Virus record (IMG/VR): IMGVR_UViG_2547132278_000006
Reading direction: 5' to 3' (one strand)
Source of the DNA: a virus
Taxonomy: Duplodnaviria; Heunggongvirae; Uroviricota; Caudoviricetes
DNA length: 24,771 nt
Part shown: in pieces, positions 1 to 24,771 of the stretch
How the letters are laid out: each line of letters begins with the position of its first letter
How positions within the stretch are numbered: position 1 is the first letter of the stretch
Notes under the pieces: generated by a model
The model's input: only the letters and a program-made list of their open reading frames with translations
What the model was told of the DNA's origin: nothing
The model's database searches: none
Program-made: the position numbers and the translations under genes

Positions 1-326
<326 letters not shown>

Positions 327-467
327 GTTAAAACGCATCTCCAGACTATCAATATGTCTCTGTGTCTCCAGTTCATAGCGGGTAATTGCGATTTCAATAA
401 TTTTATGACCAGCAAGGAAATCCAGTCCCGTAGACTCGATATCGATGCCTGCAACAATCGTTGTCAT
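327..467 (-). pseudogene. DEDD-family 3'-5' exonuclease (DnaQ/oligoribonuclease-like), N-terminal 47 codons only, truncated at the IS junction
   Basis: Hand translation from ATG at 467: MTTIVAGIDIESTGLDFLAGHKIIEIAITRYELETQRHIDSLEMRFN, then the frame enters the IS at 326 and stops after 2 codons. Exo I motif (D-I-E-S-T-G-L) and GHKIIEIA match DnaQ/Orn N-termini. Strong SD (AAGGAG) 5 nt upstream. Under 60 aa, so absent from the ORF track. Confidence 0.5.
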
Positions 468-957: not shown

Positions 958-1602
958 CTAATGAACGGTTACTCGGCCACAGAAGCGGTTTTCTATCTTT
1001 TCTACCGCGTTATCGAGCATTCTCATTACTGATCTGGCTCTTGCTTCAACTGTGCGATACCGGTTGGAAACGACGAAGGTTTGCAGATCTCCCCTTTGCG
1101 GATGCAGGTGAATTTTTGTCAGTTCCCCGCACATCAACGCATCAATACGAGCGACATACAGACGGTCTAATGATGCTCGTTGTGACCGCAAGTAATCTCG
1201 CTCTGAGAGAGCGACCCCCGGGCGTAGGCCAGCAATGGCGTTAAAATTTGAAATAGCAGTTTTGTGGCAAAACTTTTCGATATCGAGGGCTAACTCAATA
1301 CATCGATCTTCATTGGTATGGCCGACCAAATCCAACGTGTAGGCCATAACATCAGCAGGTGTGCGATCGATAACAAAGCCTTCAACACCACGCGTAAGTA
1401 GCTCTATATGCTTTGCTATTTCCATTTGAATCTGAAGCCGCTCATATAGAGGCATAGACTCACCTACTCGAACACCGAGTCGGCTCATCAAACTTCCGAC
1501 CCCAGCATCCACGTAAGGGATTCCGTAATGTTTGTCGATATATTTTGCCAGGGTTGTTTTCCCACTGCCCTGAGCACCAGTGATCCCAATCCGGTAATCC
1601 AT
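958..1602 (-). CDS. P-loop nucleoside/nucleotide kinase-like protein (thymidylate-kinase/dNMP-kinase-like)
   Basis: Walker A ITGAQGSGKTTLAKY at the N-terminus; downstream VIDRTPADVMAYT resembles the Tmk DR(H/Y) region; sits in the nucleotide-metabolism cluster; start ATG overlaps the DHFR stop (TAATG). Confidence 0.55.
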   Translation of the reverse strand: MDYRIGITGAQGSGKTTLAKYIDKHYGIPYVDAGVGSLMSRLGVRVGESMPLYERLQIQMEIAKHIELLTRGVEGFVIDRTPADVMAYTLDLVGHTNEDRCIELALDIEKFCHKTAISNFNAIAGLRPGVALSERDYLRSQRASLDRLYVARIDALMCGELTKIHLHPQRGDLQTFVVSNRYRTVEARARSVMRMLDNAVEKIENRFCGRVTVH

Positions 1603-2078
1603 TACGACCTTCTGTATACGATCTGCGAAAAGCCAGGCTCTTCCTCGCTGGCTCGTTGGGTAAAAACTGTTTCAACAGGCACAAAGCCTAAGTTACGCAT
1701 CATGCTTGTCGGGAAGAATGCATCGGCGTTTGGTACATCAACGCCGATGTGAGAGAGCCAAATCTCTTCAACATGCGGCATGAATAGCGAGTAAATTTGT
1801 TCCCCGCCAATCACCCACACAGGCTCTGGTAATCGTAGCACATCATCCACACCAGCAGGGTAGAATCCATTTGGTACAAAGCCATGCGAGCGCGTCAAAA
1901 CGAGGTTATGACGCTCTGGAAGAGGGCGTTTGAGACTTTCCATCGTTTTACGCCCCATAACGACAGTGGCGTTTTTGGTGAGTCTCTTAAATAGCTTCAG
2001 ATCGGTAGAACAACGCCAGGGCAGTTCGTTCGCTATGCCGATCTCATAGTTACGGCCAACAGCAGCTATCATCTTCAT
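1602..2078 (-). CDS. folA: dihydrofolate reductase
   Basis: MIAAVGRNYEIGIANELPW...DLKLFKRLT...VVMGRKTMESLKRPLPERHNLVLTR...VIGGEQIY aligns by eye with the E. coli FolA motif pattern (LPW, FK, VMGRxTxES, RPLPxR, IGG); SD GAGGTGA upstream; ATGA overlap with the upstream gene. Confidence 0.85.
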   Translation of the reverse strand: MKMIAAVGRNYEIGIANELPWRCSTDLKLFKRLTKNATVVMGRKTMESLKRPLPERHNLVLTRSHGFVPNGFYPAGVDDVLRLPEPVWVIGGEQIYSLFMPHVEEIWLSHIGVDVPNADAFFPTSMMRNLGFVPVETVFTQRASEEEPGFSQIVYRRS

Positions 2079-2488
2079 ATGCTCACCTCATAGATGACCG
2101 GTCTATGATGAGAGTCAGCTAAAGCGGCACGGAGTCGAGGATCGTGCACCAGCGCAGCGATAAGCAGATCGCCTTTATGCTCCGCTAATGTGCGCTTAAT
2201 ATGCTTCTCATAACTAGTGCTATTCGGTACGAGATGAAGCCAGTCGTAATCAACACCAAAATCTTTCAGCCATCGTTTAGTGGGCGCTTCAAGAGTTTCA
2301 GAGCGGCTACTGATAAGCACCACTTCAGCCCCTGAGCGAGCAAAACCACGCAACATACGGCTGGTGGGGAAAATGAGTTCATCACCGGCAATGAATTGGC
2401 CTGCATCCGAGTCAGATACAGATTTACGATGGCTGGTATTTGCCAGCACACCTTCAATTTCGCATAAGACATACATACCTCTTGCCAT
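2075..2488 (-). CDS. hypothetical protein, possibly HAD-like hydrolase fold (putative nucleotidase) with non-canonical motif I
   Basis: Likely start is the ATG at 2488 (MARGMYVLCEIEGVL...), 2 nt after the thyA stop; the ORF track extends to 2584 but overlaps thyA. hhhhCEIEGVL resembles HAD motif I (hhhhDxDGT/V) with Glu replacing both Asp; later LISSRS and VHDP could be motifs II and IV. Function is tentative. Confidence 0.45.
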   Translation of the reverse strand: MARGMYVLCEIEGVLANTSHRKSVSDSDAGQFIAGDELIFPTSRMLRGFARSGAEVVLISSRSETLEAPTKRWLKDFGVDYDWLHLVPNSTSYEKHIKRTLAEHKGDLLIAALVHDPRLRAALADSHHRPVIYEVSI

Positions 2489-2489
2489 A

Positions 2490-3593
2490 TCACACCGCCA
2501 CTGGAACCTTGATCCACGGTAGAGGGGCATAGCCAAGAATAAGAATCTCGTCCCATTTGAAATCATCCAGCTCAGACCATTCATTAGGGAATATAACGAC
2601 CGGATCTGAATGCTCTGGAGCCTGTCGTTGCATTAGCTCACACACACCTTCCATGTGGTTGTTGTACAAATGCACGTCAAAGCCAAAATGCACAAATGCA
2701 CCGGCCATGTGACCCGTAATCTTCGCGAGAAAATGAGTGAGAATGCCATAGCCAGCAATATTGAATGGCATACCAACAAAAGTGTCTACGCTACGCTGTA
2801 CGAGGCAGGAGTTGAGGATGCGTTTGGGGATTCCAAGTTCATCCAGTTCAGTTTCAGTAACACTGCCGTCCATCTCCAGATCGTATAGCATCTTGGTGTA
2901 GATAGACTCATAACCGAGGCGACTGTGTTGAAGACCAATGTCAGTTGCCATCGTTAAACGGGTTTCAAAATCAAGCTCACGACTCCACAAAGAGAAGACA
3001 AAGTGGCAAGGTGGCAGTTTCATATCCTCAAGCTCGCCTACGTTCCATGCGTTAAGCATGATGCGACGATCGGTAGGGTTCGTGCGCAGTGTATCGACAA
3101 TACGCTGTAGCTGATCGATTTCACGGGACAGCACTACGCGATCTTCACTGATACCCAGGTATCCCTCGACTTTGTACCCGCGTAAACGGAAAGTATCGAT
3201 CTTGCTCAGATATTCACTATGGCTCACGATGCGGGTATCTTCCCATCGACGCCACTGCTTACCGTAAACCGGCCCCAAATCGCCATTCTCATCGGCCCAT
3301 GCATCCCAAATCTTAACGCCGTTATCCTTGAGAAATTGGATGTTGCCCGTGCCTTTCAGATACCACTCAAGTTCGACAAGTAGTGGCTTAAGATTTACCG
3401 CCTTTCCAGAAATAAGCGGCACAGTCCCACCAGTAAGCATGTAGTAAGAGGGAACGTAGCAGGTGCTTAAAGTACCAGTGCCTGTGCGATCATCAACCTG
3501 CACGCCGCTTTTAAGCACCGTCTCAATAACTTTTGCATACGATGCGTTTGTTACCTGACCGTTCGTATGCTCACGATTCAAAAGGAGTGACAC
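2490..3593 (-). CDS. thyA: thymidylate synthase (ThyA family), long form with insertions
   Basis: DDRTGTGT, DLGPVYGKQWRRW, RRIMLNAWNVGEL, LPPCH, QRSVDTFVGMPFNIAGY, DVHLYNNH and C-terminal IKVPVAV match ThyA catalytic motifs. The ORF track starts at a GTG at 3620; GTG at 3593 has a GAGG SD 5 nt upstream and is the more likely start. Confidence 0.85.
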   Translation of the reverse strand: MSLLLNREHTNGQVTNASYAKVIETVLKSGVQVDDRTGTGTLSTCYVPSYYMLTGGTVPLISGKAVNLKPLLVELEWYLKGTGNIQFLKDNGVKIWDAWADENGDLGPVYGKQWRRWEDTRIVSHSEYLSKIDTFRLRGYKVEGYLGISEDRVVLSREIDQLQRIVDTLRTNPTDRRIMLNAWNVGELEDMKLPPCHFVFSLWSRELDFETRLTMATDIGLQHSRLGYESIYTKMLYDLEMDGSVTETELDELGIPKRILNSCLVQRSVDTFVGMPFNIAGYGILTHFLAKITGHMAGAFVHFGFDVHLYNNHMEGVCELMQRQAPEHSDPVVIFPNEWSELDDFKWDEILILGYAPLPWIKVPVAV

Positions 3594-3764: not shown

Positions 3765-4634
3765 TTATTTTTTGATCATTCCGTACATTGCTGAGGCTTT
3801 AGCTTGCTCAACAAAGGAGGATAAATCGACATCACTATAGGTTGGAGACTTCAGAATCTTTCCATCGGAAATTCGAAAACCGATCATCTTATCGGTGCCA
3901 TCAGCATGGCGAAATCCCAGGTCAGAAGAGTCGTATTTGCAGTTGGCCACAGCATGGCGACGCTCTTTGGCATCTGCAGGCCATAATTTTGTCATGTTGG
4001 ACCGATGAATTTCGCCAACCAGCTCGACGACATTGATACCGAGGAAATCAGCCAGTCGATAGGTCATCATGCACGCCACATAGATTTTGTTCATTACACG
4101 GCGCAGTTCCTGAATCAGCTCAGAATCCTTAACAGTCTTGTTCTCAAGTTTATCTGCCAGCTCTTCGAGCATACATGACGCCTCACGAGCTTCCTGAAAT
4201 GGCATTGCCATATCATCGAAAACAGTGTTACCAGGCACAAAAATTGTCTGCATAAAGCGATCAATGCTCTGTTCCTGCGTGTAATAAGTCATGCCGGTAG
4301 AAATACCACCTTTGATGGCGACCATCGTACCAACACCAACGTATAAAAAGTCGGCCATTGCATCCAGCAGTTGCTCAATATCCCCATTCATTGCGGCTGG
4401 AATACCTTCCACTACAGCTTCTTCATGAATCAGGCTTGCACGGAGACGAAGCAGCTCTGGTGTCGGCATAACGCGTCTCGGATGCTGGAAGAGTTCATGA
4501 AACTGATCGACCATCTTGTAAATACTTTCAGTGGCTACACCATGGCCTTCATGCAACTCATATGGTTCTGGCTTAAATCCAATGAGTCGATCGGTGGCAA
4601 GTTTCAGGTGGTCAGTCAGTTTGGTAAAGTTCAT
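3765..4634 (-). CDS. hypothetical protein, possibly all-alpha NTP pyrophosphohydrolase (MazG/dimeric dUTPase-like)
   Basis: 289-aa ORF between thyA and nrdB; LIHEEAVVEG...DIEQLLDAMAD loosely resembles the MazG EExxE...ExxD motif and a second helical half suggests a tandem arrangement. Function by weak motif recall only. Confidence 0.5.
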   Translation of the reverse strand: MNFTKLTDHLKLATDRLIGFKPEPYELHEGHGVATESIYKMVDQFHELFQHPRRVMPTPELLRLRASLIHEEAVVEGIPAAMNGDIEQLLDAMADFLYVGVGTMVAIKGGISTGMTYYTQEQSIDRFMQTIFVPGNTVFDDMAMPFQEAREASCMLEELADKLENKTVKDSELIQELRRVMNKIYVACMMTYRLADFLGINVVELVGEIHRSNMTKLWPADAKERRHAVANCKYDSSDLGFRHADGTDKMIGFRISDGKILKSPTYSDVDLSSFVEQAKASAMYGMIKK

Positions 4635-5960: not shown

Positions 5961-8276
5961 TCAGATTTTGCAGGCTCCGTCGCACTCATCTTCTGGCTCG
6001 ACGGCTACAGCTTGCGCCAGTGGATTCTGCGGTTCGTCGTCATCACGCTTTCCTGCACCATCTCTGGTGTTGTGGTAGTAAAGCGTTTTAACTCCCATCT
6101 TGTAGGCGAGAAGCAAATCTGACAGTAGCGTCATCATTGGGACTTTATCGCCTTCAAAGCGAGAAGGGTCATAGTTGGTATTGGCCGAAATAGCCTGGTC
6201 AAAGAACTTCTGGATGATCGCCACCTTTGTCAGATAGCCGCGGTTGTCCGGCATATCCCACAGGTATTCATACTGTTCCTTCAGTTTTTCAAACTCAGGC
6301 ACGACCATCTTGACGATGCCGTCCTTAGAAGATTTCACTGACACCGGGCCACGAGGCGGTTCGATGCCGTTGGTGGAATTAGTGATCTGGCTGGAAGTCT
6401 CGCATGGCATTTGTGCCGTCAGTGTGGAGTTGCGAAGGCCGTATTTTGCAATACGTTCACGCAGTTCTTCCCACGGCATCTTTAACTCAAAGTTTGTTTC
6501 GCCACTTTCGTCTAATGAAGAACGGTAATGGTCGATCGGCAACTGACCAATTGCGTATTTGGTCTGCTCAAACCAGTCACACTCACCTTTTGCTTCGGCA
6601 AGTCGGCAGCTGGCATCAAGAAGGTAATACTGGATAGCTTCGAACGTTTCATGCACCAGTTTATTGCCAGCGGTATCAGAATAACGAACGCCATTCTTTG
6701 CCAGGTAATAAGCAAAGTTGGTTACACCAATTCCCAAGCTACGACGAGCTTTGGCAGGCACTTCGGCTGCCTCCATCGGATAGTCTTGATAATCCAGTAA
6801 CGAATCCAGTGCAGCAACGGCATAGAACGCCACCTCTTTAAGAGACTCCAGTGAACGGATGGCTCCGAGGTTAAAAGCGGATAAAGTGCATAGCGCGATC
6901 TCACCGTTCGGGTCGTCGGTAAATGCCAGTGGACGGGTGGGTAGGGTGATCTCCATACACAGGTTTGACTGGCGGACAGGTGCAAGAGCAGGAATGAAAG
7001 CGCCATGCTCATTAATATGATCGACGTTCGCAATATAAATTCGGCCCGTGGACGCTCGTTCCTGCATCAGAGATGAGAACAGCTCAATGGCAGGTACTGA
7101 CTTCTTGCGAATTGAATCATCGGCTTCGTATTTATGGTACAGCTTTTCAAACAGCTCCTGGTCTGTGAAGAAGGCTTCGTACATATCAGGCACATCATGC
7201 GGGCTGAACAGAGTGATGTTCTCGCTTCTGACGAGTCGACGGTACATTAGACGGTTACTCATGACGCCGTAATCAAGATGGCGAACGCGGTTTTCATCAA
7301 TACCACGGTTATTTTTCACCACCAGCAGACTTTCAACTTCAAGATGCCAGATCGGGTAAAACGCTGTTGCTGCGCCACCACGAACACCACCTTGCGAACA
7401 AGATTTAACAGCCGTCTGGAAATGCTTCAGGAATGGAATAACTCCGGTATGGGTGGCTTCACCATTGCGGATCTCGCTGCCCAGCGCACGGATACGGCCA
7501 AAACCAATACCAATTCCAGCACGACGTGAAACGTAGTCGATAATTGCGGCTGAAGCTGCACTAATCCCTTTCAGACTATCGCCAGACTCAATCAGCACAC
7601 AACTGGAGAACTGACGGGTTGGAGTACGGACGCCGGCCATGATTGGTGTGGGCAGAGACAGTTTGAACGTACTTGTAACGTCATAGAAACCTTTGACCAT
7701 CTCCATACGTGTTTTGCCAGCGCAGTCGTCTTCCCAATTCTGGAACAGACACATGCCTACCAGCATATAGATATGTTGCGGCCCCTCATGAATCTCACCA
7801 GTAACACGGTTTTGAACGAGGTATTTGCTTTGCAACTGCACCGTAGCTGCATAGCCAAAAAGATCGTCACGTTTCGGCTTAATGTAATTGCCGAGTTCTT
7901 CGATCTCTTCAAACGAATAATGTGTCAGCAAATCCTTGTCATAAACGCCCTTGTTAACGTTCTTGACAATGTGTTGGTAGAAGTTCGGATAGTCGTAACG
8001 ACCGAAGGCATCTTTGCGGATTTTAAAAATGTTCAGGCGGGCAGCCACCTGTGAGTAATTTGGTGCTTCTGGTGAGATCAAATCAGCGGCAGATTTAACC
8101 AAAGCCTCATGCAACTGGCTGGTGGTAATCCCATCAAAAATGCTGGCCGCAGCTCCCATTGCTACAGCGGATGCGCTTACACCACGAATGCCTTCTACGC
8201 CATACATTACGACGCGGTTGTATTTTTCTTCGGATAACGGCTCTGTTTGGCCGTTACGTTTTACGATGCTTATCAT
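5961..8276 (-). CDS. nrdA: ribonucleotide reductase class Ia large (alpha) subunit
   Basis: 771 aa; long stretches match recalled E. coli NrdA (YLVQNRVTGEI, LPTPIMAGVRTPTRQFSSCVLIE, CSQGGVRGGAAT, NRVRHLDYG, RQSNLCMEI, C-terminal ...CDGACKI). Confidence 0.95.
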   Translation of the reverse strand: MISIVKRNGQTEPLSEEKYNRVVMYGVEGIRGVSASAVAMGAAASIFDGITTSQLHEALVKSAADLISPEAPNYSQVAARLNIFKIRKDAFGRYDYPNFYQHIVKNVNKGVYDKDLLTHYSFEEIEELGNYIKPKRDDLFGYAATVQLQSKYLVQNRVTGEIHEGPQHIYMLVGMCLFQNWEDDCAGKTRMEMVKGFYDVTSTFKLSLPTPIMAGVRTPTRQFSSCVLIESGDSLKGISAASAAIIDYVSRRAGIGIGFGRIRALGSEIRNGEATHTGVIPFLKHFQTAVKSCSQGGVRGGAATAFYPIWHLEVESLLVVKNNRGIDENRVRHLDYGVMSNRLMYRRLVRSENITLFSPHDVPDMYEAFFTDQELFEKLYHKYEADDSIRKKSVPAIELFSSLMQERASTGRIYIANVDHINEHGAFIPALAPVRQSNLCMEITLPTRPLAFTDDPNGEIALCTLSAFNLGAIRSLESLKEVAFYAVAALDSLLDYQDYPMEAAEVPAKARRSLGIGVTNFAYYLAKNGVRYSDTAGNKLVHETFEAIQYYLLDASCRLAEAKGECDWFEQTKYAIGQLPIDHYRSSLDESGETNFELKMPWEELRERIAKYGLRNSTLTAQMPCETSSQITNSTNGIEPPRGPVSVKSSKDGIVKMVVPEFEKLKEQYEYLWDMPDNRGYLTKVAIIQKFFDQAISANTNYDPSRFEGDKVPMMTLLSDLLLAYKMGVKTLYYHNTRDGAGKRDDDEPQNPLAQAVAVEPEDECDGACKI

Positions 8277-13991: not shown

Positions 13992-14093
13992 GTATGCTGT
14001 CAGCGGTAATTGATAGTCTGTCAGCGGTTCACCGTATGCTGCCAACTGTTTTTGGTATTCTGTCAGCGGCAAATCAAGTATGCTGTCAGCGGT
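13992..14093 (+). repeat. origin iterons: 5 direct repeats of a 16-bp unit (GTATGCTGTCAGCGGT) at 21-23 bp spacing
   Basis: Units start at 13992 (perfect), 14013, 14034 (degenerate), 14055 and 14078 (perfect); phased at about 2 helical turns; they end 20 bp before the repA ATG, so they overlap the repA promoter region. Confidence 0.8.
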
Positions 14094-14113
14094 TGAATGA
14101 CAAAGGTGTCCAC

Positions 14114-15208
14114 ATGTCCACAAAAAATAAAAAAGGTAAAAATAACAAAGAAGTAGAAGATAACATCGACAACTTTGAAGAAGGTTCCCTTGAATTGTAC
14201 ACAGGGGAACTTGTCCCTAATAGCAACAATACAGTCCAACCAATTGCGTTGATGCGACTGGGGTTGTTCGTCCCCACGCTTAAGGGAACAAAATACAGTA
14301 AACGTAACAAGCCAAATGAGATCGATGCTTCAAAGGAGCTTGTCCAGCTCGAAGTAGCCCGTTCTGAAGGCTATTCCGATATCAAGATAACCGGTCCTCG
14401 TCTCGACATGGATCATGATTTCAAAACGTGGGTGGGCGTTGTGCGTTCGCTGGCAGAATACGGCGAACCTAACGGTCGTGTCGAGTTAAGCATCACGAAA
14501 TTTGCTAAGTTTTGTGGCTATCCATCGTCACAGATCCGCAAAACACTCCGCGACCGGCTTACAAACAGTCTTTTGAAGATCATGCGTACAACTCTGTCTT
14601 TCCAGAGAACGTATGAAGAAAAGAACGTCGACGGCTCTAACAAGATCTCGCTTCTGATGGTGCACCTCATCAATAGCGTGGACTACAACGAGCAGAAAGA
14701 TACGGTGGTGTTCTATGCAGAACCGAAGCTGGCCGAACTATATCGCTTTGACCATAAGGTTCTTTTGCAGTTAAAGGTTATCAATAAGCTACCACGCAAA
14801 GAAACAGCACAGGCTCTGTACACCTTCATCGAAAGTCTTCCAACCAAGCCTGCGCCGGTATCGCTTGCTCGATTGCGTGCGCGACTCAATTTGAGTAGCA
14901 GGAATGTAAGCTCGCAGAATCAGACTATACGTAACGGCTTAAAAGCTCTCCAAGATTTGGGCTATCTCGAATACAGCGAGATTAAGCGAGGGCGGTCGAT
15001 CTATATCCAGATTCACAGCCGTAATCCAAAACTTAAAGTCGCACCGCCAAAACCTGAAGACATCGAACCCAAAAAACCAGATGAGAAAGCCGGGGAAATT
15101 GATGCTAAACAGAACATTATCAACAAGATAACTGAACTTTCGCAGAATTTGACGCCTGAAAATATCAAGATGATTGAGATCCTTTCCAATAGTCTCAAAC
15201 TGCTTTGA
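14114..15208 (+). CDS. repA: iteron-binding replication initiator (RepA-like), 365 aa
   Basis: The only substantial plus-strand gene; flanked upstream by 5 iterons and downstream by 12. Start taken at ATG 14114 (MSTKNKKGK...); the ORF track's 5' extension to 13994 runs through the iterons. Assignment is mainly contextual (P1/F-type organisation). Confidence 0.7.
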   Translation: MSTKNKKGKNNKEVEDNIDNFEEGSLELYTGELVPNSNNTVQPIALMRLGLFVPTLKGTKYSKRNKPNEIDASKELVQLEVARSEGYSDIKITGPRLDMDHDFKTWVGVVRSLAEYGEPNGRVELSITKFAKFCGYPSSQIRKTLRDRLTNSLLKIMRTTLSFQRTYEEKNVDGSNKISLLMVHLINSVDYNEQKDTVVFYAEPKLAELYRFDHKVLLQLKVINKLPRKETAQALYTFIESLPTKPAPVSLARLRARLNLSSRNVSSQNQTIRNGLKALQDLGYLEYSEIKRGRSIYIQIHSRNPKLKVAPPKPEDIEPKKPDEKAGEIDAKQNIINKITELSQNLTPENIKMIEILSNSLKLL

Positions 15209-15740
15209 TATGCTGTCAGCGGTGAAATGTATGCTATCAGCGGCTATTTTTCTGAAATGTATGCTGTGAACGGTTAAAGATATGCTACCAGCGGTATAGT
15301 GAGATGAACGTATGCTGTGAGCGGTAAATCATCTATCACCACTCAATGCTCTGTCATACCTCCCCAGTGGTTACTAACCTCGAAGAGTGCATTCCATATA
15401 GGTTTGCGCTCACTAACATTCTATTGCTATTGCGCTGATTGCTTGTAGTGAAAGGCATTTATTGCCTGCTGCTCCCTGATAGAACGTATGCTGTCAGCGG
15501 TGTTTTATTGAGGAATTTTTGTTTGGATATGCTATCAGCGGTAATTAATGGTATATGTCAGACCTTCGTATGCTGCCAGCGGTAATTTTGTTCTGGTTAT
15601 ACCCATACCGGTACACATTATTCATGCAATGTCTTAAGTATGCTGCCAGCGGTAAAAAATCGAGTAAAGTATGCTGTGAGCGGTGATATAGACTCTCGAT
15701 ATGCTATCAGCGGTAGTTGATTGTGTATGCTGTCAGCGGT
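15209..15740 (+). repeat. incA-like copy-control array: 12 direct iterons of the same 16-bp unit
   Basis: Units start at 15209, 15230, 15260, 15281, 15311, 15486, 15527, 15568, 15638, 15669, 15699 and 15725, all same orientation; most spacings are about 21, 30-31 or 41 bp (roughly 2, 3 and 4 helical turns), with 26 and 70 bp as exceptions; 0-3 mismatches to consensus; a 160-bp iteron-free spacer at 15327-15485. Confidence 0.8.
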
Positions 15741-15757
15741 GACGACTATGAAATATG

Positions 15758-15780
15758 ACTGCGGAACGAGCCGCAGTCAG
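15758..15780. terminator. stem-loop (GACTGCGG-AACGAG-CCGCAGTC) at the end of the iteron array
   Basis: 8-bp perfect inverted repeat followed on the plus strand by TTTGCATTT; lies between the iterons and the convergent CDS 15788..16000. Confidence 0.35.
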
Positions 15781-15787
15781 TTTGCAT

Positions 15788-16000
15788 TTAGTGTATTTTC
15801 TTTAACAGACCCCAAAGTGTTCCGGCTTTTGTAGTCAGTTTTCCTGTTTCTGGATCGTACATACGCCATTCACGCCGCTGGTGGACGATATACCCATCTT
15901 CACGTTCCAGACGCTCAAGAATGCCAGGCTGCTTGAAACCCTTAGCACGCCAGTAGCCGCTTGTTTTCTCGATTTCCAGACCTGCCAGTGTTAATGCCAT
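15788..16000 (-). CDS. hypothetical small protein (70 aa)
   Basis: ORF whose start overlaps the upstream gene's stop (ATGA at 16000); no motif. Confidence 0.5.
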   Translation of the reverse strand: MALTLAGLEIEKTSGYWRAKGFKQPGILERLEREDGYIVHQRREWRMYDPETGKLTTKAGTLWGLLKKIH

Positions 16001-16335
16001 TACCCAACCTCCTTGCAGTCATCGAAAAGGTAGCTTTGCTGAGAAGCGTGAACGCCATAAAAGCCCTTGTATTTGTTGTATACGAAGTGGTCTTCTCCGA
16101 CGCCGGTTAATTTGCCATTACGATTTGTGAGATATGGGGATGACAACACTCGATCGTCACGCACAATATAGAACTGGTCGCCGCTGTCTACGACCATCGC
16201 TCCATATGGTGCTTTTATGACGTCGGTAAGAGCGCCATTCTTAACGTCGGCTACAGACATTTCACACTGATAAACAGTGGTGTCGGCCACAACGATCGAA
16301 GAAAGAAACAACAGCGCGAATGGGATGGTCTTCAT
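16000..16335 (-). CDS. small secreted protein with N-terminal signal peptide (111 aa)
   Basis: MKTIPFALLFLSSIVVADTT has n/h/c-region character; two Cys (mature N-terminus and C-terminus) could form a disulfide. Confidence 0.6.
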   Translation of the reverse strand: MKTIPFALLFLSSIVVADTTVYQCEMSVADVKNGALTDVIKAPYGAMVVDSGDQFYIVRDDRVLSSPYLTNRNGKLTGVGEDHFVYNKYKGFYGVHASQQSYLFDDCKEVG

Positions 16336-16511
16336 GCTGCCACCTCTTTGATTACATCAAATGCTGAATTAAATACGAGCACGATAGCCAAAGCGTTTAT
16401 GACTACGTCGTGCACCGGGGAAAAGACTTTACGAATGACACCAGTGAAAATGCAGTCGATGACAAAAGCTATTGAAACGATGAGTAACAAGTATTCAATA
16501 AAAATCTTCAT
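16332..16511 (-). CDS. small hydrophobic membrane protein (59 aa), not in the supplied ORF track
   Basis: Hand translation: MKIFIEYLLLIVSIAFVIDCIFTGVIRKVFSPVHDVVINALAIVLVFNSAFDVIKEVAA; two hydrophobic segments; its stop overlaps the next gene's ATG (ATGA at 16332-16335). No obvious SD. Confidence 0.4.
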   Translation of the reverse strand: MKIFIEYLLLIVSIAFVIDCIFTGVIRKVFSPVHDVVINALAIVLVFNSAFDVIKEVAA

Positions 16512-16550
16512 GATAGGTAGATACTAACTTATATAAACTTTACTGTAAAC

Positions 16551-16826
16551 TCACTCAAAAGTGCTGATGCTTAAAATACGCTCAAGATGTTCAGCATCTT
16601 CATTACTGATTTGTTGAGTCTCTTCTACGTACCAACAGTTGCCGTTATGCCAACAAACACCATCATCATCAACCATCACTGAATCAGCGTCATGACCTGT
16701 ATATTCAACAAGAGTACGCTGGATCAGCGTGTCAGTTTCTTCATCGTTAAGGCCATCGACTTTGACCATAAAAAGCGGAAACACGTCATAGACAGTGCTG
16801 GTAACGATTCGAACTAAAACTCTCAT
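16551..16826 (-). CDS. small strongly acidic protein (91 aa)
   Basis: About 18 Asp/Glu against about 5 basic residues; preceded by the conserved ACCACAAAAGGAAAAACAC-ATG initiation cassette. Confidence 0.6.
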   Translation of the reverse strand: MRVLVRIVTSTVYDVFPLFMVKVDGLNDEETDTLIQRTLVEYTGHDADSVMVDDDGVCWHNGNCWYVEETQQISNEDAEHLERILSISTFE

Positions 16827-16881
16827 GTGTTTTTCCTTTTGTGGTTAGTGTTTACTTATTTTGTTAGTTATGAATAGGCGA

Positions 16882-17307
16882 TCAATCTTCTTGGTTAGGG
16901 AAAAACTGTTCAATAACTCTGTCAACGGCTGTGTCTATATGGAGTAGATGCCACACAACCATATCTTTGCTTCCCATGCCTTGTGTGAATATCACGTCAT
17001 ACTTACGCCATGCGCAGTGGAACCAATATGCTGAGTCATCAATTGGTAAATCCTCTCCCGCCTCTTTGAAGTATTTCAGCAGCATTGCCTGCTCTGCCGT
17101 TGGCGTTGGACCTATTTCCTGAGCGTACATACGGATGAATCGCTGCCAGTCTGTCTCGTCGGGGGTTGGATCTGGTGGGGTCATTTCTGCGATAGCGTTT
17201 CGTAGCTGATGCGCCCAATCAGGTTCAGGAAAGCCTTTTGCTACTTCATCATCAATAACATCCAGAGCCACGTTTGCGGCATCGTAGAGTTTCTTAATAA
17301 CTGTCAT
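16882..17307 (-). CDS. hypothetical acidic protein (141 aa)
   Basis: Intact ORF rich in Asp/Glu and Pro; no motif recognised. Confidence 0.55.
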   Translation of the reverse strand: MTVIKKLYDAANVALDVIDDEVAKGFPEPDWAHQLRNAIAEMTPPDPTPDETDWQRFIRMYAQEIGPTPTAEQAMLLKYFKEAGEDLPIDDSAYWFHCAWRKYDVIFTQGMGSKDMVVWHLLHIDTAVDRVIEQFFPNQED

Positions 17308-17356
17308 GTTTTCTTAGCCTTTTAAACAAATTGTTTTCTTAATAAGATAATTGCGA

Positions 17357-17384
17357 TAAAAAAGGCGTCCAACTGGACGCCTGA
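17357..17384 (-). terminator. rho-independent terminator
   Basis: Minus strand: AGGCGTCC-AGTT-GGACGCCT followed by TTTTTTATC; 15 nt downstream of the SPFH gene stop. Confidence 0.6.
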
Positions 17385-17398
17385 ACTTTTAAGGGGAG

Positions 17399-18229
17399 TT
17401 ATTTCACTGTAATGAAAGGAGTGTTAGCCCCTTGAGTCATGTACTGCGGTAACTGGCCATTCCATTTATTGATGGCTTCCAGCTCCATAACGTTCGGGTT
17501 TTGACGCAGAGCTTCACCGCGCAGACGAATGGCGTCTGCTTCTGCTTGCGCACGAGCACGGATAGCATCAGCTTCACCATTAGCCTGTTCACGTAGCATA
17601 TTCGCCTCAGCTTTACGCTGTTCAACTTCCTGCTGGCGTTGCAGAGTACGCTGGTTAGCCGTTACTTTGGCGTTGATAGATTCAATGACGGTTTTTGGGT
17701 AATCAGGCTTTCCAACCCATGACAGGCTCAGTACCTCAATACCAACCGGAGACATCTCTTTCTGAATGTCTTTCAGTGCGTTGTCCAGCAATTGCGCCTT
17801 ACCACCGTCGATAAATGAGTCAGTGGTCATACGGCTGGCCAAACGGTTTAGAGAGTCGGCAATTTTCTGACGCAGATCTGATTCGGTGATATCGTCTACG
17901 CCTTTGCGATAGGTCTGGAACACCGTCGTTACCTTGTCACGATTAACCAGATACGCAACGCCAATTTTGTGACCAATAGCAGTACCGTCACTCATCTGGA
18001 ATGTGAACGGCTCGTCGTAGGTCTTCATTTGTTTGAAGGTCGGGAATACGTAAAGTTCGGTGTTAAGACCTGTCCATTGGCGACCAACGCCAACCACTTC
18101 ACCGATCCCTTTGTCTTCACCTAATTTGTTTACTTTGATGCCAACGTATCCAGGCTCCACGCGATCACAGCCAGTAAGACCCATTGTGCAAATAGCCGCC
18201 AGAGCAACTGCAAGTAAACCTTTCTTCAT
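17399..18229 (-). CDS. SPFH/band-7 (prohibitin/HflC-like) lipoprotein
   Basis: Signal peptide with lipobox MKKGLLAVALAAICTMGLTGC; SPFH-like core and an Ala/Glu/Arg/Gln-rich coiled-coil tail (QRQQEVEQRKAEANMLREQANGEADAIRARAQAEADAIRLRGEAL) typical of HflK/C-type proteins. Confidence 0.75.
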   Translation of the reverse strand: MKKGLLAVALAAICTMGLTGCDRVEPGYVGIKVNKLGEDKGIGEVVGVGRQWTGLNTELYVFPTFKQMKTYDEPFTFQMSDGTAIGHKIGVAYLVNRDKVTTVFQTYRKGVDDITESDLRQKIADSLNRLASRMTTDSFIDGGKAQLLDNALKDIQKEMSPVGIEVLSLSWVGKPDYPKTVIESINAKVTANQRTLQRQQEVEQRKAEANMLREQANGEADAIRARAQAEADAIRLRGEALRQNPNVMELEAINKWNGQLPQYMTQGANTPFITVK

Positions 18230-18232
18230 TAC

Positions 18233-18433
18233 TTATTTCCCCTTTGCTTTGATTAATGAGTTGATAAACTTACGACCAGCAATAAGACCGATTACAGGAG
18301 CACCAAAACCAACGATAACTCCAAACATGACGGCTAAATCACTCTTGGTAGAAATCAGCGACGGAACCAGTAAACCGTAGATGAGAGCCACTGAAACGCC
18401 TGTGGCTACTGCCAATAGATAGATTTTGATCAT
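18233..18433 (-). CDS. small two-TM membrane protein (66 aa), cotranscribed upstream partner of the SPFH lipoprotein
   Basis: Two hydrophobic helices; stop 3 nt before the SPFH start; conserved initiation cassette (CCACATAGGAAAACAC-ATG) upstream. Confidence 0.6.
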   Translation of the reverse strand: MIKIYLLAVATGVSVALIYGLLVPSLISTKSDLAVMFGVIVGFGAPVIGLIAGRKFINSLIKAKGK

Positions 18434-18462
18434 GTGTTTTCCTATGTGGTTGTTATGCGAAA

Positions 18463-18491
18463 ATAATAAGTAAGTACTTATATATTTTCAA
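18463..18491 (-). promoter_or_regulatory. sigma70-like promoter for the small-TM/SPFH operon
   Basis: Minus strand TTGAAA-N17-TATTAT (5/6 and 5/6 to consensus), about 30 nt upstream of the ATG at 18433; the spacer holds the near-palindrome ATATATAAGTACTTACT. Confidence 0.45.
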
Positions 18492-18492
18492 G

Positions 18493-18522
18493 AGATAAAA
18501 AAGGCGTCCTGTGGACGCCTTG
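18493..18522 (-). terminator. rho-independent terminator
   Basis: Minus strand: AGGCGTCC-ACA-GGACGCCT followed by TTTTTTATC; 4 nt downstream of the recA-like stop; same stem sequence as the terminator at 17357. Confidence 0.6.
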
Positions 18523-18525
18523 TGT

Positions 18526-19599
18526 TTACTCTTCTACTGACTCGGTGGGGTTGTCTTTTGCTCTTCGGTCGTCGATTGCCTGCAAAGCCGCAATGATTTC
18601 AGCCAGTGGCTTCTCCCGATACATCTCGACGATCTGCGATTTGGTGTATTTCTTGTCACCAATTTCAACTCGCCCGCTGGCGTTCTTTGGCAGGTATCCT
18701 TCTTCCAGCATGTACTCGACGAGCGATTCGATAACGTCGAGGCCACGAGTAGGATCGAAGTAGAATTTCCAGGTGCATTTGCCATACGGTGGTGCAACTT
18801 TGTTTTTGATGCATTCTGCGCCTACGTCCTGGCCGATCTTCTCTTTACCATCCTTCATCACCGATGCACCAAGACGGATACGTACAGAAGCGTAGAACTT
18901 CGGTGAATCTCCACCTGGCGACGTAGTAGGGTCGCCAAACATTACACCGATTTTTGTGCGAACCTGATTCAAGAAGATGATGCAGGCGTTGTATTTGCGT
19001 GCCCACAAAGCCAGAGTAGGGAAGTTCGCACTTGTCGCACGAGCCAGTGCCGTATTGTCGTTCATGTTTAGCTGATCTTTGTCTTTGGCAGTGCCTTCAG
19101 CCATCTTTTCGAACTTCTCGGCTTTGGAGTTCGGAACCATAGACGCAAGTGAGTCAGCCACGATACAGATAGGTGCTGATTCAGGGATAAGCTCTTCATC
19201 ACGTACCAATTTAAGTATTGTGCCGATCAACTCTACAGAGTCTTCGAAGGTGTCAGGCTGCTTGTATACCCACTGACCGTCATCCTCATCTGCGTTCAGG
19301 CCATTGGCTACAGCCAGGCCAACGTCAAAACTGTTTTCATGATCGAGGAATACCGCCAGACCATCTTGTTTTTGAGCGGAGATCATCGCTGCTGTTGCAA
19401 GGAACGTTTTCCCTGCACTTGGAGGACCGAATACTTCGACGATACGACCACATGGGAAGCCGCCATCGTAACGACCAGAAATAGCTTTGTTTAACGGTGG
19501 AAAGCCTGTATCAATCCAATGAGTTACTTTCTGAATTTCGTCGTTGCTACCGATTTTCTTTTTCAGAGCAAGTGCCAGTGCGGATTTTCCTTTTGCCAT
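18526..19599 (-). CDS. recA: RecA-family recombinase
   Basis: Walker A GRIVEVFGPPSAGKTFLA; FLNQVRTKIGVMFGDPTTSPGGDSPKFYASVRIRLG is near-identical in pattern to recalled E. coli RecA ([36 protein letters not shown]). Confidence 0.9.
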   Translation of the reverse strand: MAKGKSALALALKKKIGSNDEIQKVTHWIDTGFPPLNKAISGRYDGGFPCGRIVEVFGPPSAGKTFLATAAMISAQKQDGLAVFLDHENSFDVGLAVANGLNADEDDGQWVYKQPDTFEDSVELIGTILKLVRDEELIPESAPICIVADSLASMVPNSKAEKFEKMAEGTAKDKDQLNMNDNTALARATSANFPTLALWARKYNACIIFLNQVRTKIGVMFGDPTTSPGGDSPKFYASVRIRLGASVMKDGKEKIGQDVGAECIKNKVAPPYGKCTWKFYFDPTRGLDVIESLVEYMLEEGYLPKNASGRVEIGDKKYTKSQIVEMYREKPLAEIIAALQAIDDRRAKDNPTESVEE

Positions 19600-19601
19600 G
19601 A

Positions 19602-19874
19602 TCAGGCTCCTTTTGTTTCGTTGATTCGTTTTAAAGCGGCGGATTCATCGAATACAATCGCATCGTGGTTAAGGAGTCTGGATACACGAGCGAGGATTTT
19701 TACGACCTGCTCGCTGACTAATCCAAACTCGCGATCTGTCGCTTTCATTCCGGCAGCGCCTAGAATTGACGGCAGTGCGATGACAGCGTACTCACCGTGA
19801 TAAAAGACAATCTCTTTTGCCAGTTGGGCAGGGGTGGTTGTAGCGCCATTGATAATCGATTTAAGCATTAGCAA
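19602..19874 (-). CDS. hypothetical protein (90 aa)
   Basis: ORF between the FEN and recA-like genes, overlapping the FEN 3' end by 7 nt; no motif. Confidence 0.45.
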   Translation of the reverse strand: MLMLKSIINGATTTPAQLAKEIVFYHGEYAVIALPSILGAAGMKATDREFGLVSEQVVKILARVSRLLNHDAIVFDESAALKRINETKGA

Positions 19875-20812
19875 TACCTTTCGAATGGAAGAACAAACAC
19901 TTCAAGGTCTTCAAGGAACGAACGGAAATTCAGCTCGTAGCACAGTTGCTCGAATGCTTTCACGTCACGATTGCCTTTGATTGTTTCGATTTCGGTAGGC
20001 GGAAACTTCGTCTCAATCAGGTTCATTAGCGTGATGTTTCTCTTGAACGCTTCGAGCATTCGACAGCCTGTTTTCTCGTTGAAGGCATTCTTCGCTAGTT
20101 TGTTGAAGGCGGTCTTATGGCGTCCTTTGTCAACCACGATTGAGCCGTCGTTGATGCCGCGTACCATCGTTGCGACACTTCCCCATTCATGCAGCAGCTC
20201 TTTCGCACCGCCAGCACCAATGCCACCAACACCGCTAATATTGTCCGATTTATCGCCTTGTAATGCTTTTGCTTCCAAAAATGCGCGAGGAGTAGCGAAT
20301 CCTGTCAGCTCCGCAAATTGCTCAAAATTAACCTGCTTGTTTTTGGCGTCTTCGCGCAGGCTTACCCAGCTTACGTTTTCGCGAACTAACTGAAGCCAGT
20401 CGCTATCGCCTGTTAACAGATAGATGTGTTCAACGATTGGCTGCGGTGCAATGCTGGCTACCAGCAGCCCGGCCAGATCATCCGCTTCTGCATCTTTTGC
20501 AATGAGTTGGGTAACTCCAAGCGCGGTCATCATTTTGAGGATGTATGGCTTCTGGATAGCAAAGCCTTCCTTCATCTTTTTCATATCAGGATCGTCGTCG
20601 CGATTTGCTTTGTAGTCCGGGTAAAAGTCGCGACGCTTGTCACTAAATCCATCCCAAAGAATCATAGGTCGGGCATGGAGGATGGAGGCATAACGACGGA
20701 CGTTCTTAACAAAGCCGAAAGCAGCCTGTACTTCCATTTCGCCGTTGTGCAATTTGTCAGATTGTTGGTGGTAATAACCCAGGCTATTGCCATCTACGAA
20801 GAGATAATTCAC
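19868..20812 (-). CDS. flap endonuclease / 5'-3' exonuclease (T5 D15 / T4 RNase H family)
   Basis: YLFVDGNSLGY, AKDAEADDLAGLL, TGDSDWLQLV and H3TH-like GDKSDNISGVGGIGAGGAKELL. Start is uncertain: the ORF track starts at GTG 20863, but that places a strong terminator hairpin inside codons 2-9; GTG at 20812 follows the hairpin and has GGAAGGAA upstream, so it is preferred here. Confidence 0.85.
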   Translation of the reverse strand: MNYLFVDGNSLGYYHQQSDKLHNGEMEVQAAFGFVKNVRRYASILHARPMILWDGFSDKRRDFYPDYKANRDDDPDMKKMKEGFAIQKPYILKMMTALGVTQLIAKDAEADDLAGLLVASIAPQPIVEHIYLLTGDSDWLQLVRENVSWVSLREDAKNKQVNFEQFAELTGFATPRAFLEAKALQGDKSDNISGVGGIGAGGAKELLHEWGSVATMVRGINDGSIVVDKGRHKTAFNKLAKNAFNEKTGCRMLEAFKRNITLMNLIETKFPPTEIETIKGNRDVKAFEQLCYELNFRSFLEDLEVFVLPFERYC

Positions 20813-20825
20813 CGGTACATTCCTT

Positions 20826-20858
20826 CCAAAAAGTAAGGCGTCCGTAGACGCCTTACTG
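20826..20858 (-). terminator. rho-independent terminator downstream of the SSB gene
   Basis: Minus strand: GTAAGGCGTC-TACG-GACGCCTTAC followed by TTTTTGG; 15 nt after the SSB stop; shares the AAGGCGTC/GACGCCTT stem core with the terminators at 17357 and 18493. Confidence 0.55.
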
Positions 20859-20872
20859 GTCACGTAATGGGA

Positions 20873-21901
20873 TTACAGAGAGTCCAGCTCTCTCAGTAGG
20901 TCATCCAGACCTTCATCTTCCGTCGCAGATGCGGCTGCTACAGATGTCGCTGCGACTGCTTCAGACTCTTTGACTGATACTGCAACGGCAGCGGGACTTG
21001 CTTCTGGTTTAAATTCAGTTTCAACGGCACGGAGGATTTCTTCATCAACCAGACTGGTTGGTTCAGAAGCTGGGGTATGAGCGGTAGCTACAGCAGTCGC
21101 ACCCTCCGTATGACCAGTGACAGAGCCAAATCCAGGTAGTGCCGCAGCCGATGTTTTCGCGGTTGAGGAAATTGCTGGTGCAGATGCTGCGGCAGTTGGT
21201 GCAGCGATGCCAATCAGACGACCCATAGTGCGAACTGTCGACAGAAGACGAGTTTCATCAGCTTGATTTGCGTATGCGATCAGATCATGCTGGGTATTCC
21301 AGAATTTATCTTCGATATCGCCTTTGTAGACTTTACGCTTAGGCGAGACGTCATATTTGGTATCGCGACCAGAGCCAGTACGTTTAATCAGGAATGCGTA
21401 GCCTTCCTCTTTGCTCAGTGGATTGCCGATATCATCAGCGATGTCTTCGGTGATTGCTTTGCAGATATCATCGAATACAGTAGACGGCAGCTCGATTAAC
21501 TGGCATTTCTCAGCATCTGCGAAATCCTCACGAGCAGAAAGAATGCCGTTGACCAGGTAGCGAGGAGTGGCACGCATTTGACCGATGCGTTCTTCCATTG
21601 CTTTGTTACCCTTGTGACGAGCGCGACCTTCCATCACCATTTCGCATAGCTGACAAGCGCGACCGTGAGTATGTTGCTCACAAATATAAGCGTTGGTTGC
21701 TTCTTTACCTTCCTCGTTCTGATACTTAACGTAGTGCATACCGAAAGTCTGGAAGAACTTACCGTTTGGGTCGTCTTTATTCGGGAAGATGCGGATATAG
21801 TTGACGCCGTCTTTTAAGCGAGTCAGATCAACGTTGTTACCACGTTTGGCGGCAATGTCTTCACGAGTTTTGTTAAGCAAATCAAGTAATGTCTTAGACA
21901 T
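20873..21901 (-). CDS. gp32-like single-stranded DNA-binding protein
   Basis: IRIFPNKDD matches T4 gp32 IRFLPSKND; Zn-ligand pattern H...C...C-x2-C (CEQHTHGRACQLCEM); Ala/Thr/Ser-rich low-complexity linker; acidic C-terminal tail (EDEGLDDLLRELDSL, compare gp32 DDIDNLLNEI). Confidence 0.75.
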   Translation of the reverse strand: MSKTLLDLLNKTREDIAAKRGNNVDLTRLKDGVNYIRIFPNKDDPNGKFFQTFGMHYVKYQNEEGKEATNAYICEQHTHGRACQLCEMVMEGRARHKGNKAMEERIGQMRATPRYLVNGILSAREDFADAEKCQLIELPSTVFDDICKAITEDIADDIGNPLSKEEGYAFLIKRTGSGRDTKYDVSPKRKVYKGDIEDKFWNTQHDLIAYANQADETRLLSTVRTMGRLIGIAAPTAAASAPAISSTAKTSAAALPGFGSVTGHTEGATAVATAHTPASEPTSLVDEEILRAVETEFKPEASPAAVAVSVKESEAVAATSVAAASATEDEGLDDLLRELDSL

Positions 21902-22018
21902 GTGTTTCTCCTTGTTGTGATTTGGCCGATGGCGCTATGCGCGTTGGGCTTTCGTTCATTCGTGGCTCTTTCGAGCTGTTAAATGATAGATCAGTACTTA
22001 CTTATTATCTATCAAAAA

Positions 22019-22450
22019 TCAACGGGGAGTAATAAAGCGTTCAGAGCCTAATCGCTCTAATTCAACGATGGCCATCTTTGACGCCTGAACGATCATGTCT
22101 CGGCGATGCGAAAAGGCGGCGACAGCATGTTTGTATATGTCTGCGATGTGCCGTGCTTCATCCAACTTCTGCCTTTTAGACAGATACTGTGGGTTTGTTT
22201 TAACCTTAGCGTCCAGTACAGATTCGTTGAACTTAATGCCGTTCATACTCAAGTTCTTACGCTCTGTGTCGTATAGCTTTGCTTCAACAGCTTCAAGGTT
22301 AAGTTTTGCCTCTGCGACACTTCTTTCTGCATGAGCGAGTTTTGAGCCATACTCCATTAAAAGGCGGGGTTGTCTACGCCAGACTTCCTCCAGATTGTCT
22401 CGGTCAAACTCGAGATCAGACATTATTTTCTCGTAAATATCGGTGATCAT
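22019..22450 (-). CDS. hypothetical protein, possibly UvsY-like recombination mediator
   Basis: 143 aa (T4 UvsY is 137 aa); LLMEYGSKLA...AEAKLNLEAVEAKLYD loosely parallels recalled UvsY LYSKWL...AQKKVALKARLDYY; sits next to the gp32-like gene in a RecA/Mre11/Rad50 context. Functional call is weak. Confidence 0.45.
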   Translation of the reverse strand: MITDIYEKIMSDLEFDRDNLEEVWRRQPRLLMEYGSKLAHAERSVAEAKLNLEAVEAKLYDTERKNLSMNGIKFNESVLDAKVKTNPQYLSKRQKLDEARHIADIYKHAVAAFSHRRDMIVQASKMAIVELERLGSERFITPR

Positions 22451-22482
22451 GTGCTTTCCTTTTTACTTATCATCTTATATTG

Positions 22483-22520
22483 ATTATATCATTGTGATGA
22501 TAAGGCAAGGAGTTCGAGGA
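22483..22520 (-). promoter_or_regulatory. candidate promoter with extended -10 (TGATATAAT) upstream of the UvsY-like gene
   Basis: Minus strand TTGCCT-N14-TATAAT with TG at -15/-14; -10 hexamer at 22483-22488, about 30 nt upstream of the ATG at 22450. Confidence 0.4.
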
Positions 22521-22544
22521 TAGGGGATATGAGGGGATAAGAGA

Positions 22545-22569
22545 AAACATGGCCATAGAGGCCATGTTT
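22545..22569 (-). terminator. stem-loop downstream of the polymerase gene
   Basis: AAACATGGCC-ATAGA-GGCCATGTTT, a 10-bp perfect stem 7 nt after the polymerase stop; the 3' tract is only moderately T-rich. Confidence 0.4.
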
Positions 22570-22575
22570 ATGGGA

Positions 22576-24485: not shown

Positions 24486-24771
<286 letters not shown>

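Follow-up and report, generated by a model that had tools for sequence, protein, structure and literature searches.

Gene X, a small gene located between the thymidylate synthase gene thyA and the dihydrofolate reductase (DHFR) gene dfrA51, was analysed in the virus record IMGVR_UViG_2547132278_000006, a stretch of 24,771 nucleotides (nt) referred to here as the window. Judged from its predicted structure and its sequence relationships, which are taken here to settle fold and homology, the gene X protein is of the PNKP 3'-phosphatase type, a HAD-fold domain without a cap (C0). Two glutamates stand at the place of its catalytic aspartates, and comparison with its orthologues favours an inactivated scaffold; the protein is therefore read here, with a probability of about 55%, as a pseudo-phosphatase, retained in the surrounding thymidylate module as an accessory that binds a ligand or a partner. 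The fold family and the HAD label in RefSeq were known before, while the degenerate gene X variant in a widespread phage-plasmid operon is new. The window itself is an SSU5-type phage-plasmid of Escherichia coli, 98-99% identical to the Escherichia phages CMS-2020a, Cyrano and PhiR41_1 and 79% identical to the Salmonella phage SSU5.

Gene X is read on the minus strand from an ATG at 2488-2486 to a TGA stop at 2077-2075, giving a product of 137 amino acids (aa) with the N-terminus MARGMYVLCEIEGVL and the translation MARGMYVLCEIEGVLANTSHRK...VIYEVSI.

2075..2488, minus strand: gene X, capless HAD-fold, degenerate PNKP-type phosphatase domain (open reading frame and translation, phrog_5387, AF2, Foldseek, hhalign)

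A longer open reading frame (ORF), listed mechanically and reaching 2584, runs over thyA; the 137-aa start is adopted because residues 1-136 match phrog_5387 from end to end (positions 1-136 of 137, E 7e-89; PHROG lists the function of this family as unknown) and because the homologues have this start in common. The location between thyA and the DHFR gene, already given in a first-pass annotation made from the sequence alone, agrees with the junction sequences, which are TGAtATG for thyA/X and ATGA for X/dfrA51. The thyA TGA (2492-2490) ends 1 nt ahead of the gene X ATG, the gene X TGA overlaps the dfrA51 ATG, and the dfrA51 stop in turn overlaps the start of the following P-loop gene, so that thyA, X, dfrA51 and the P-loop gene have the appearance of a single operon with coupled translation. 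The Shine-Dalgarno sequence of dfrA51, GAGGTG, lies within the last gene X codons; at 2075-2095 (minus strand) the codons of the conserved C-terminal Y-E-V (TAT GAG GTG) double as this signal, and part of the C-terminal conservation of gene X may thus come from it.

The HAD-like fold, proposed as a candidate in the first-pass annotation together with a structure or profile check, was recovered in agreement by AlphaFold2 (AF2), Foldseek and hhalign. In the AF2 model, obtained with 20 homologues as input (pLDDT 91, pTM 0.87), strands 5-10, 55-63, 83-87, 108-114 and 131-134 alternate with helices in the order of the Rossmannoid HAD core. E10 ends strand 1 (DSSP strand 5-10), K98 lies in a helix and H115-D116 come after strand 4, placements that agree with the HAD motif positions summarized in PMC13543951; the predicted structure thus combines a Rossmannoid core with a strand 1 that ends in the motif I residue, as expected of the HAD superfamily. 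Against PDB, Foldseek returned Pnkp1 (E 1e-8, TMq about 0.8), the 3'-phosphatase domain of T4 Pnkp (5uj0) with TMq 0.80 and TMt 0.77, and class B/C acid phosphatases; by name, the 43 matches at E<=1e-3 are Pnkp phosphatase domains, class C acid phosphatases and other HAD-type entries. Phage PNKP phosphatase domains are on top of the Foldseek matches in BFVD, and the sole phmmer match in PDB is Pnkp1 4xrp (E 4e-6). With the Pfam family PF25109 HAD_PNKP the protein scores 23.2 bits (E 8.2e-5, about 8e-5), below the gathering threshold of 27.6 bits, and weaker HAD families trail behind; homology to HAD_PNKP is secure despite this score because of the profile-profile comparison, in which hhalign aligned the gene X family with 24 canonical relatives over 134 columns (99.8% probability, E 2e-29). 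PADLOC, consulted for a defence or anti-defence role, gave no match for gene X.

The substitution of Glu-x-Glu for the catalytic Asp-x-Asp, on which the first-pass annotation was centred, is found whichever aligner is used. In four independent alignments (phmmer, MAFFT, hmmalign and hhalign) E10 (GAA at 2459-2461) and E12 (GAA at 2453-2455) fall on the motif I aspartates, phmmer setting VLCEIEGVLA of gene X over VICDLDGTLS of Pnkp1 4xrp, so that E10-I-E12-G-V14 departs from the canonical DxDx(T/V). The features of the catalytic site and of an adjoining clade-specific element are the following:

2444..2464, minus strand: motif I equivalent C9-E10-I11-E12-G13-V14-L15, end of strand 1 (four alignments, DSSP)
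2342..2368, minus strand: clade-specific helix P41-T-S-R44-M-L-R-G48-F49 (alignments)
2303..2317, minus strand: motif II equivalent L58-I-S60-S-R62 (MAFFT and hmmalign)
2195..2197, minus strand: K98, equivalent of the motif III Lys (HMMER alignment to Pnkp1, hmmalign)
2141..2146, minus strand: H115-D116, motif IV remnant, directly after strand 4

When T4 Pnkp numbering is carried over through hmmalign to an HMM of the canonical relatives, D165 (the nucleophile slot) corresponds to E10, D167 (acid/base slot) to E12, T169 (the DxDx(T/V) slot) to V14, R176 to R21, D187 to D36, S211 to S60, R213 to R62, D254 to E94 (or H96), K258 to K98 and D277/D278 to H115/D116, the last with an uncertainty of one residue. 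By alignment, the window protein retains the motif II Ser/Thr as S60, the serine that the first-pass annotation had picked out for this motif, and the motif III Lys as K98, which HMMER and hmmalign align with T4 K258 and MAFFT places one residue off. At motif IV the register differs by one, with D116 on D278 in HMMER and H115 on D278 in MAFFT and hhalign. The auxiliary PNKP residues R176, D187 and R213 are represented by R21, D36 and R62, nearly invariant through the syntenic clade, whereas R44 and G48 of the clade-specific helix show no variation down to the most divergent orthologues and are not conserved in canonical PNKP-type HADs.

The comparative data come from an HMMER profile search of 1.84 billion representative proteins, which gave 285 matches at E<=1e-3 and 19 at E<=1e-10. 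Among the listed distant PNKP-type HAD matches (P0049 onward) motif I has both aspartates in 131 of 133, the two exceptions being fragments, and the full D-D-S/T-K-D pentad is present in 120 of the 133. Closer to gene X, motif I reads CEIE[GD] in the window, SSU5 and Klebsiella proteins, CEID in several proteins at 42-55% identity and VELD in P0039 and P0040; the nucleophile slot is occupied by Ala in P0043 (CALDG), by Thr in P0044 (CTLDG) and by Gly in P0047 (CGFTG), where the second acid is lost too, and P0045 has the canonical pair (CDIDN). On all five contigs inspected (those of P0040, P0043, P0044, P0045 and P0047) the X homologue occupies the same slot, [NrdA NrdB] MazG-like - ThyA - X - [DHFR] - AAA_28 P-loop - small ORF - RNase_T exonuclease, with starts and stops that abut or overlap. 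These proteins are therefore positional orthologues, among which the residue that forms the acyl-phosphate is not conserved. The P0045 locus (L009) has no DHFR gene, X being followed directly by the P-loop gene. In this ENA metagenome scaffold, region 6001-7052 encodes ThyA, a HAD protein with canonical DxD and AAA_28, and P0045 has precomputed Pfam matches to HAD_PNKP and Acid_phosphat_B; the slot may originally have had this arrangement.

Erosion is seen in the remaining motifs too. In the 80 IMG/VR loci of a locus scan, which encode 32 distinct proteins, Klebsiella orthologues (72% identity) have SS at the place of H115-D116 and a group at 50% identity has AS; further out the pair becomes AS, CS, RT or TT, which means that an acidic pair is not a conserved feature of the gene X family. 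The His-Asp candidate for motif IV in the first-pass annotation is this H115-D116, located directly after strand 4. The motif III Lys is gone in orthologues at <=55% identity, and divergent ones have A, E, D or C where the window protein has S60 of motif II. Conserved clade-wide are R21, D36, R62, T70, W73 and L74, all common to active PNKP-type HADs, and the clade-specific R44, G48, P130 and C-terminal H-P-H-[KR]-P-x-[IV]-Y-x-V. Since one of the two patterns of the A1-based locus scan was CEI[ED], that scan is biased towards Glu, and the HMMER search of representative proteins is the unbiased source for non-Glu orthologues; nothing in the widest clade alignment (A3) was sufficiently conserved to base a locus search on.

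Erosion of the motifs does not extend to the gene as a whole. Between the window and SSU5 or the Klebsiella phage pJN2-26, the nonsynonymous divergence of gene X (pN 0.10-0.18) is far lower than the synonymous one (pS 0.44-0.64), with dN/dS of 0.07-0.21, values that are approximate because dS is near saturation among the three and that are comparable to those of thyA, dfr and the P-loop gene. Protein length is held at 137-146 aa, and R44, G48, G53, W73, L74 and P130 are invariant down to 21-35% identity. On these sequence data gene X is under purifying selection and is not decaying. It is present in 201 of 5426 complete E. coli genomes (~4%), where 202 of 204 copies are plasmid-borne, and its carriers also include Salmonella, Klebsiella, Citrobacter and relatives.

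According to the reading favoured here, the gene X protein would have descended from PNKP-type polynucleotide 3'-phosphatases and, in the SSU5 group, would no longer carry out the classical Mg2+-dependent aspartyl-phosphate chemistry. The remaining pocket (E10, R21, D36 and R62) and the clade-specific surface (R44, G48 and the C-terminal H-P-H-[KR]-P) would be used for a non-catalytic job, which might consist in binding a phosphorylated ligand, either a nucleotide or a 3'-phosphate end, without turnover or in docking, as an accessory or scaffold subunit, on a co-translated enzyme of the thymidylate pathway. T4 Pnkp requires D165 as nucleophile, D167 as acid/base, S211, K258 and D278 plus Mg2+, and its D167N variant keeps the RNA 3'-phosphate product sequestered in the active site (PMC3592404), which provides a precedent for the ligand-holding role. 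In Nem1, a DxDxT phosphatase, replacement of either motif I Asp by Glu (D257E, D259E) kills the activity of a protein that still folds and still binds Spo7 (PMC13543951); a paper on Fcp1, examined for motif I D-to-E data, contained none. As the gene X protein has neither the DxD nor a score above the HAD_PNKP threshold, it should not be filed as a phosphatase or as a "polynucleotide kinase", and the RefSeq label "HAD family hydrolase" is right on the fold and probably wrong on the activity.

The genes surrounding gene X bear on its possible role:

3765..4634, minus strand: MazG-like nucleotide pyrophosphohydrolase (Pfam PRA-PH, phrog_671; conserved upstream of thyA in orthologous loci)
2490..3593, minus strand: thyA, thymidylate synthase, 367 aa (Pfam PF00303 4.5e-78; same order in all orthologous loci)
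1602..2078, minus strand: dfrA51, trimethoprim-resistant DHFR (NCBIfam NF047324, 332 bits against a cut-off of 322)
958..1602, minus strand: P-loop protein (AAA_28) with a thymidylate-kinase/deoxynucleoside-kinase-like fold (Pfam, AF2, Foldseek)

ThyA is about 100 aa longer than the Pfam model and matches it in two stretches, residues 27-213 on model positions 2-154 and then from about residue 268, so that it carries insertions, which its counterparts in the orthologous loci (350-376 aa) share. The DHFR gene is called dfrA51 by RefSeq on E. coli plasmids; DfrA51 is a trimethoprim-resistance determinant recently characterized from the phage-plasmid SSU5, and DfrA50 on its own reportedly precipitated after purification (PMC12217456). 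For the P-loop protein, the AF2 model (pLDDT 87) has thymidylate and deoxynucleoside kinases as its best PDB neighbours (Foldseek E ~4e-5, TM 0.5-0.63), and the protein is probably, on the strength of this predicted fold, the dTMP or dNMP kinase (for deoxythymidine or deoxynucleoside monophosphates) of the module. It has a conserved D79-R80-T81-P motif, and elsewhere it is labelled "ABC transporter ATP-binding protein" (Cyrano), "dephospho-CoA kinase" (one Citrobacter record) or AAA family ATPase. The Cyrano record (L001, OV696614.1; CYRAN_72-75) also gives the ThyA-type synthase (PF00303) as "ThyX" and gene X as "Polynucleotide kinase", even though gene X has no kinase domain. A class Ia ribonucleotide reductase is encoded upstream, as is the MazG-like protein. 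Taken together, this set of neighbours describes a module that makes deoxyuridine monophosphate (dUMP), turns it into dTMP, recycles folate and probably phosphorylates dTMP.

Several observations weigh against a purely non-catalytic gene X protein. Codon 10 encodes Glu in 58 of 58 distinct clade genes (GAA in 51, GAG in 7), and codon 12 is free to vary among GAA, GAG, GAT and GAC; with synonymous changes present at codon 10 and Asp one transversion away, Glu10 is selected as Glu and not just tolerated, a specificity that a purely structural relic would not obviously need and that the pseudo-phosphatase reading does not explain. At nearly every position essential in T4 the window protein has a residue of similar chemistry (E10, E12, R21, D36, S60, R62, E94 or H96, K98 and D116), and with such conservative replacements the close E. 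coli/Salmonella subclade could still be active. The divergent orthologues with A, T or G might also differ in function from the Glu clade, and both the ligand and the partner of the protein are as yet putative. These points lend some weight to the idea, unlikely on balance, that the protein has remained an enzyme, namely a phosphatase or nucleotidase of a non-canonical type in which Glu10 would act as nucleophile (through a glutamyl-phosphate) or as general base, the backbone having shifted to make room for the longer side chains. E10, E12, S60, R62, K98 and D116 are all present in the window protein and in the relatives nearest to it, Glu10 is under specific purifying selection, the R21/D36/R62 network of active PNKP-type HADs is retained throughout, and T4 Pnkp itself hydrolyses 3'-dTMP (PMC3592404). 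Against this, engineered D-to-E changes at either motif I position inactivate Nem1 (PMC13543951), the Mg2+-binding Asp of motif IV is gone (SS) in orthologues just 28% diverged, the Lys is gone at about 50% identity, and orthologues in the same slot have A, T or G as the nucleophile residue. The neighbouring genes make and phosphorylate dTMP, so that a dNMP phosphatase would run against that flow. For this reason, and because the nearest relatives are capless PNKP-type 3'-phosphatase domains, the deoxynucleotidase that the first-pass annotation had derived from the metabolic setting finds no backing. An NT5C-type 5'(3')-deoxyribonucleotidase was considered separately and rejected: it is absent from the six Pfam matches at E<=1, NCBIfam gave nothing relevant and the best structural matches are capless PNKP domains; moreover, a protein of 137 aa, with about 25 residues from strand 1 to the next core helix, has no room for a C1 cap. 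No natural HAD protein with a Glu nucleophile is known to us, though no exhaustive search for one was made. It is improbable that Glu10 is the working catalytic residue of a HAD-fold hydrolase or transferase independent of the motif IV Mg2+ site, with a substrate tied to thymidylate metabolism; we know of no description of such Glu nucleophile or base chemistry in the HAD superfamily. Of the two possibilities named in the first-pass annotation, a nucleotidase or an inactivated scaffold, the comparative data favour the second, while the intact state of the gene and the strict Glu10 leave some room for a non-canonical activity.

Two further explanations concern the origin and the retention of gene X. 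That its protein is the phosphatase half of a split end-healing polynucleotide kinase-phosphatase, with the P-loop protein contributing the kinase, after the model of T4 Pnkp or Pnkp1, is quite improbable, even if the closest solved relatives are Pnkp phosphatase domains, the L009 HAD gene with canonical DxD stands directly before an AAA_28 P-loop gene, a HAD_PNKP gene and a P-loop gene are likewise consecutive in T1-like phages, and the Cyrano record calls gene X a "T4 Pnkp homolog". The P-loop model resembles thymidylate and deoxynucleoside kinases (E 4e-5), and none of the 50 best matches listed is a T4 Pnk kinase entry; the window P-loop protein has no BLASTP similarity to the P-loop proteins of T1-like phages, the neighbours are genes of nucleotide synthesis and not ligase or RNA-repair genes, and the catalytic residues of gene X are degenerate. 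In T1-like phages, as in Escherichia phage vB_ecoS_OzMSK (L096, 3501-4528), a metallophosphatase is followed by a canonical stand-alone HAD_PNKP phosphatase and immediately after it by a P-loop NTPase unrelated in sequence to that of the window, a set that is possibly a split end-healing set in those phages. Very improbable is that gene X is a decaying, functionless remnant kept by its coupled operon position and by the dfrA51 ribosome-binding site: its catalytic motifs are indeed eroding and its last codons carry the dfrA51 GAGGTG and the ATGA overlap, but dN/dS is 0.07-0.21 across the whole gene, length (137-146 aa) and invariant residues are held down to 21-35% identity, L009 retains it without a DHFR gene behind it, and the fold is predicted confidently. 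The pseudo-phosphatase reading therefore remains preferred. A novel reading softer than that of a catalytic Glu10, and likewise improbable, is that the gene X protein would be an obligate accessory subunit that stabilizes or regulates a complex of ThyA, DfrA50/51 and the kinase.

Gene X abuts, and seems translationally coupled to, the clinically relevant trimethoprim-resistance genes dfrA50/dfrA51; were its product an accessory subunit, it could influence the trimethoprim resistance conferred by these phage-plasmids. Either a subunit of a thymidylate "metabolon" or a Glu-based catalyst would, if true, be of real interest. The main present yield is the replacement of the labels "polynucleotide kinase", "HAD family hydrolase" and "hypothetical protein" by "probably inactive PNKP-type HAD domain", along with a natural enzyme-to-pseudoenzyme series in one operon slot, in which the nucleophile goes from D to E to A/T/G.

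In the rest of the window, the left end (1-326, with an ORF at 75-260, plus strand) is the end of an IS21-family element encoding the C-terminus of IstB (PF01695, E 7.8e-24), and homology to intact phage-plasmids starts at about 327, where a remnant ORF is found at 318-467 (minus strand). The insertion truncates the gene for the 3'-5' (RNase_T-type) exonuclease, which follows the small ORF in all related loci. A replication and recombination block occupies 13994-24513 and also contains genes for an SPFH/Band 7 protein, a RecA-like protein, a 5'-3' exonuclease and a gp32-like single-stranded DNA-binding protein; it further includes:

13994-15208, plus strand: Rep3_N-type initiator
22576-24513: ORF with DNA polymerase III alpha finger and HHH domains

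Among known systems, the phosphatase domains of T4 Pnkp (residues 148-301) and Capnocytophaga Pnkp1 (4xrp/4xru; PF25109) have in common with the gene X protein the capless HAD fold, alignability over the full length, the equivalents of R176, D187, S211, R213 and K258, and a W-L...Y-D core. They differ from it in motif I (D-x-D-x-T in PNKP, E-x-E-x-V in the gene X protein), in motif IV ([DE]-D-R in PNKP, HD in the gene X protein and SS or AS in its orthologues) and at the C-terminus, where PNKP has VVxMWRxxG...QV...GDF and the gene X clade H-P-H-[KR]-P-x-[IV]-Y-x-V; moreover, the gene X protein is not fused to a kinase domain and is encoded in a thymidylate-synthesis operon, unlike PNKP, which is found beside RNA/DNA repair genes. 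The stand-alone phage HAD_PNKP proteins (the "putative acid phosphatase" of T1-like phages, similar to P1 Pap, and the "polynucleotide kinase" of Henuseptimavirus) are, like the gene X protein, single HAD domains of about 140-180 aa, and are about 30% identical to it over the N-terminal 60%. Unlike gene X, they keep D-D-S/T-K-D, pass the Pfam threshold and are unlinked to thyA or dfr.

The Nem1 variants D257E and D259E carry the same two substitutions at the same positions as E10 and E12, but they are laboratory-made and belong to another HAD subfamily, whereas the gene X protein is natural and the rest of its site has co-evolved. Naturally degenerate HAD scaffolds kept for ligand binding or storage are the LNS2 domain of Nir2/PITPNM and the plant vegetative storage protein. 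Both are among the Foldseek PDB neighbours of gene X (9jzp/9jtz/9jz1 and 4fyp), the Nir2 entries including a complex with phosphatidic acid; they are remote (11-17% identity) and eukaryotic, with other caps and partners, so that the likeness is one of analogy and not of membership. As analogies, they may offer the best functional parallels for the gene X protein.

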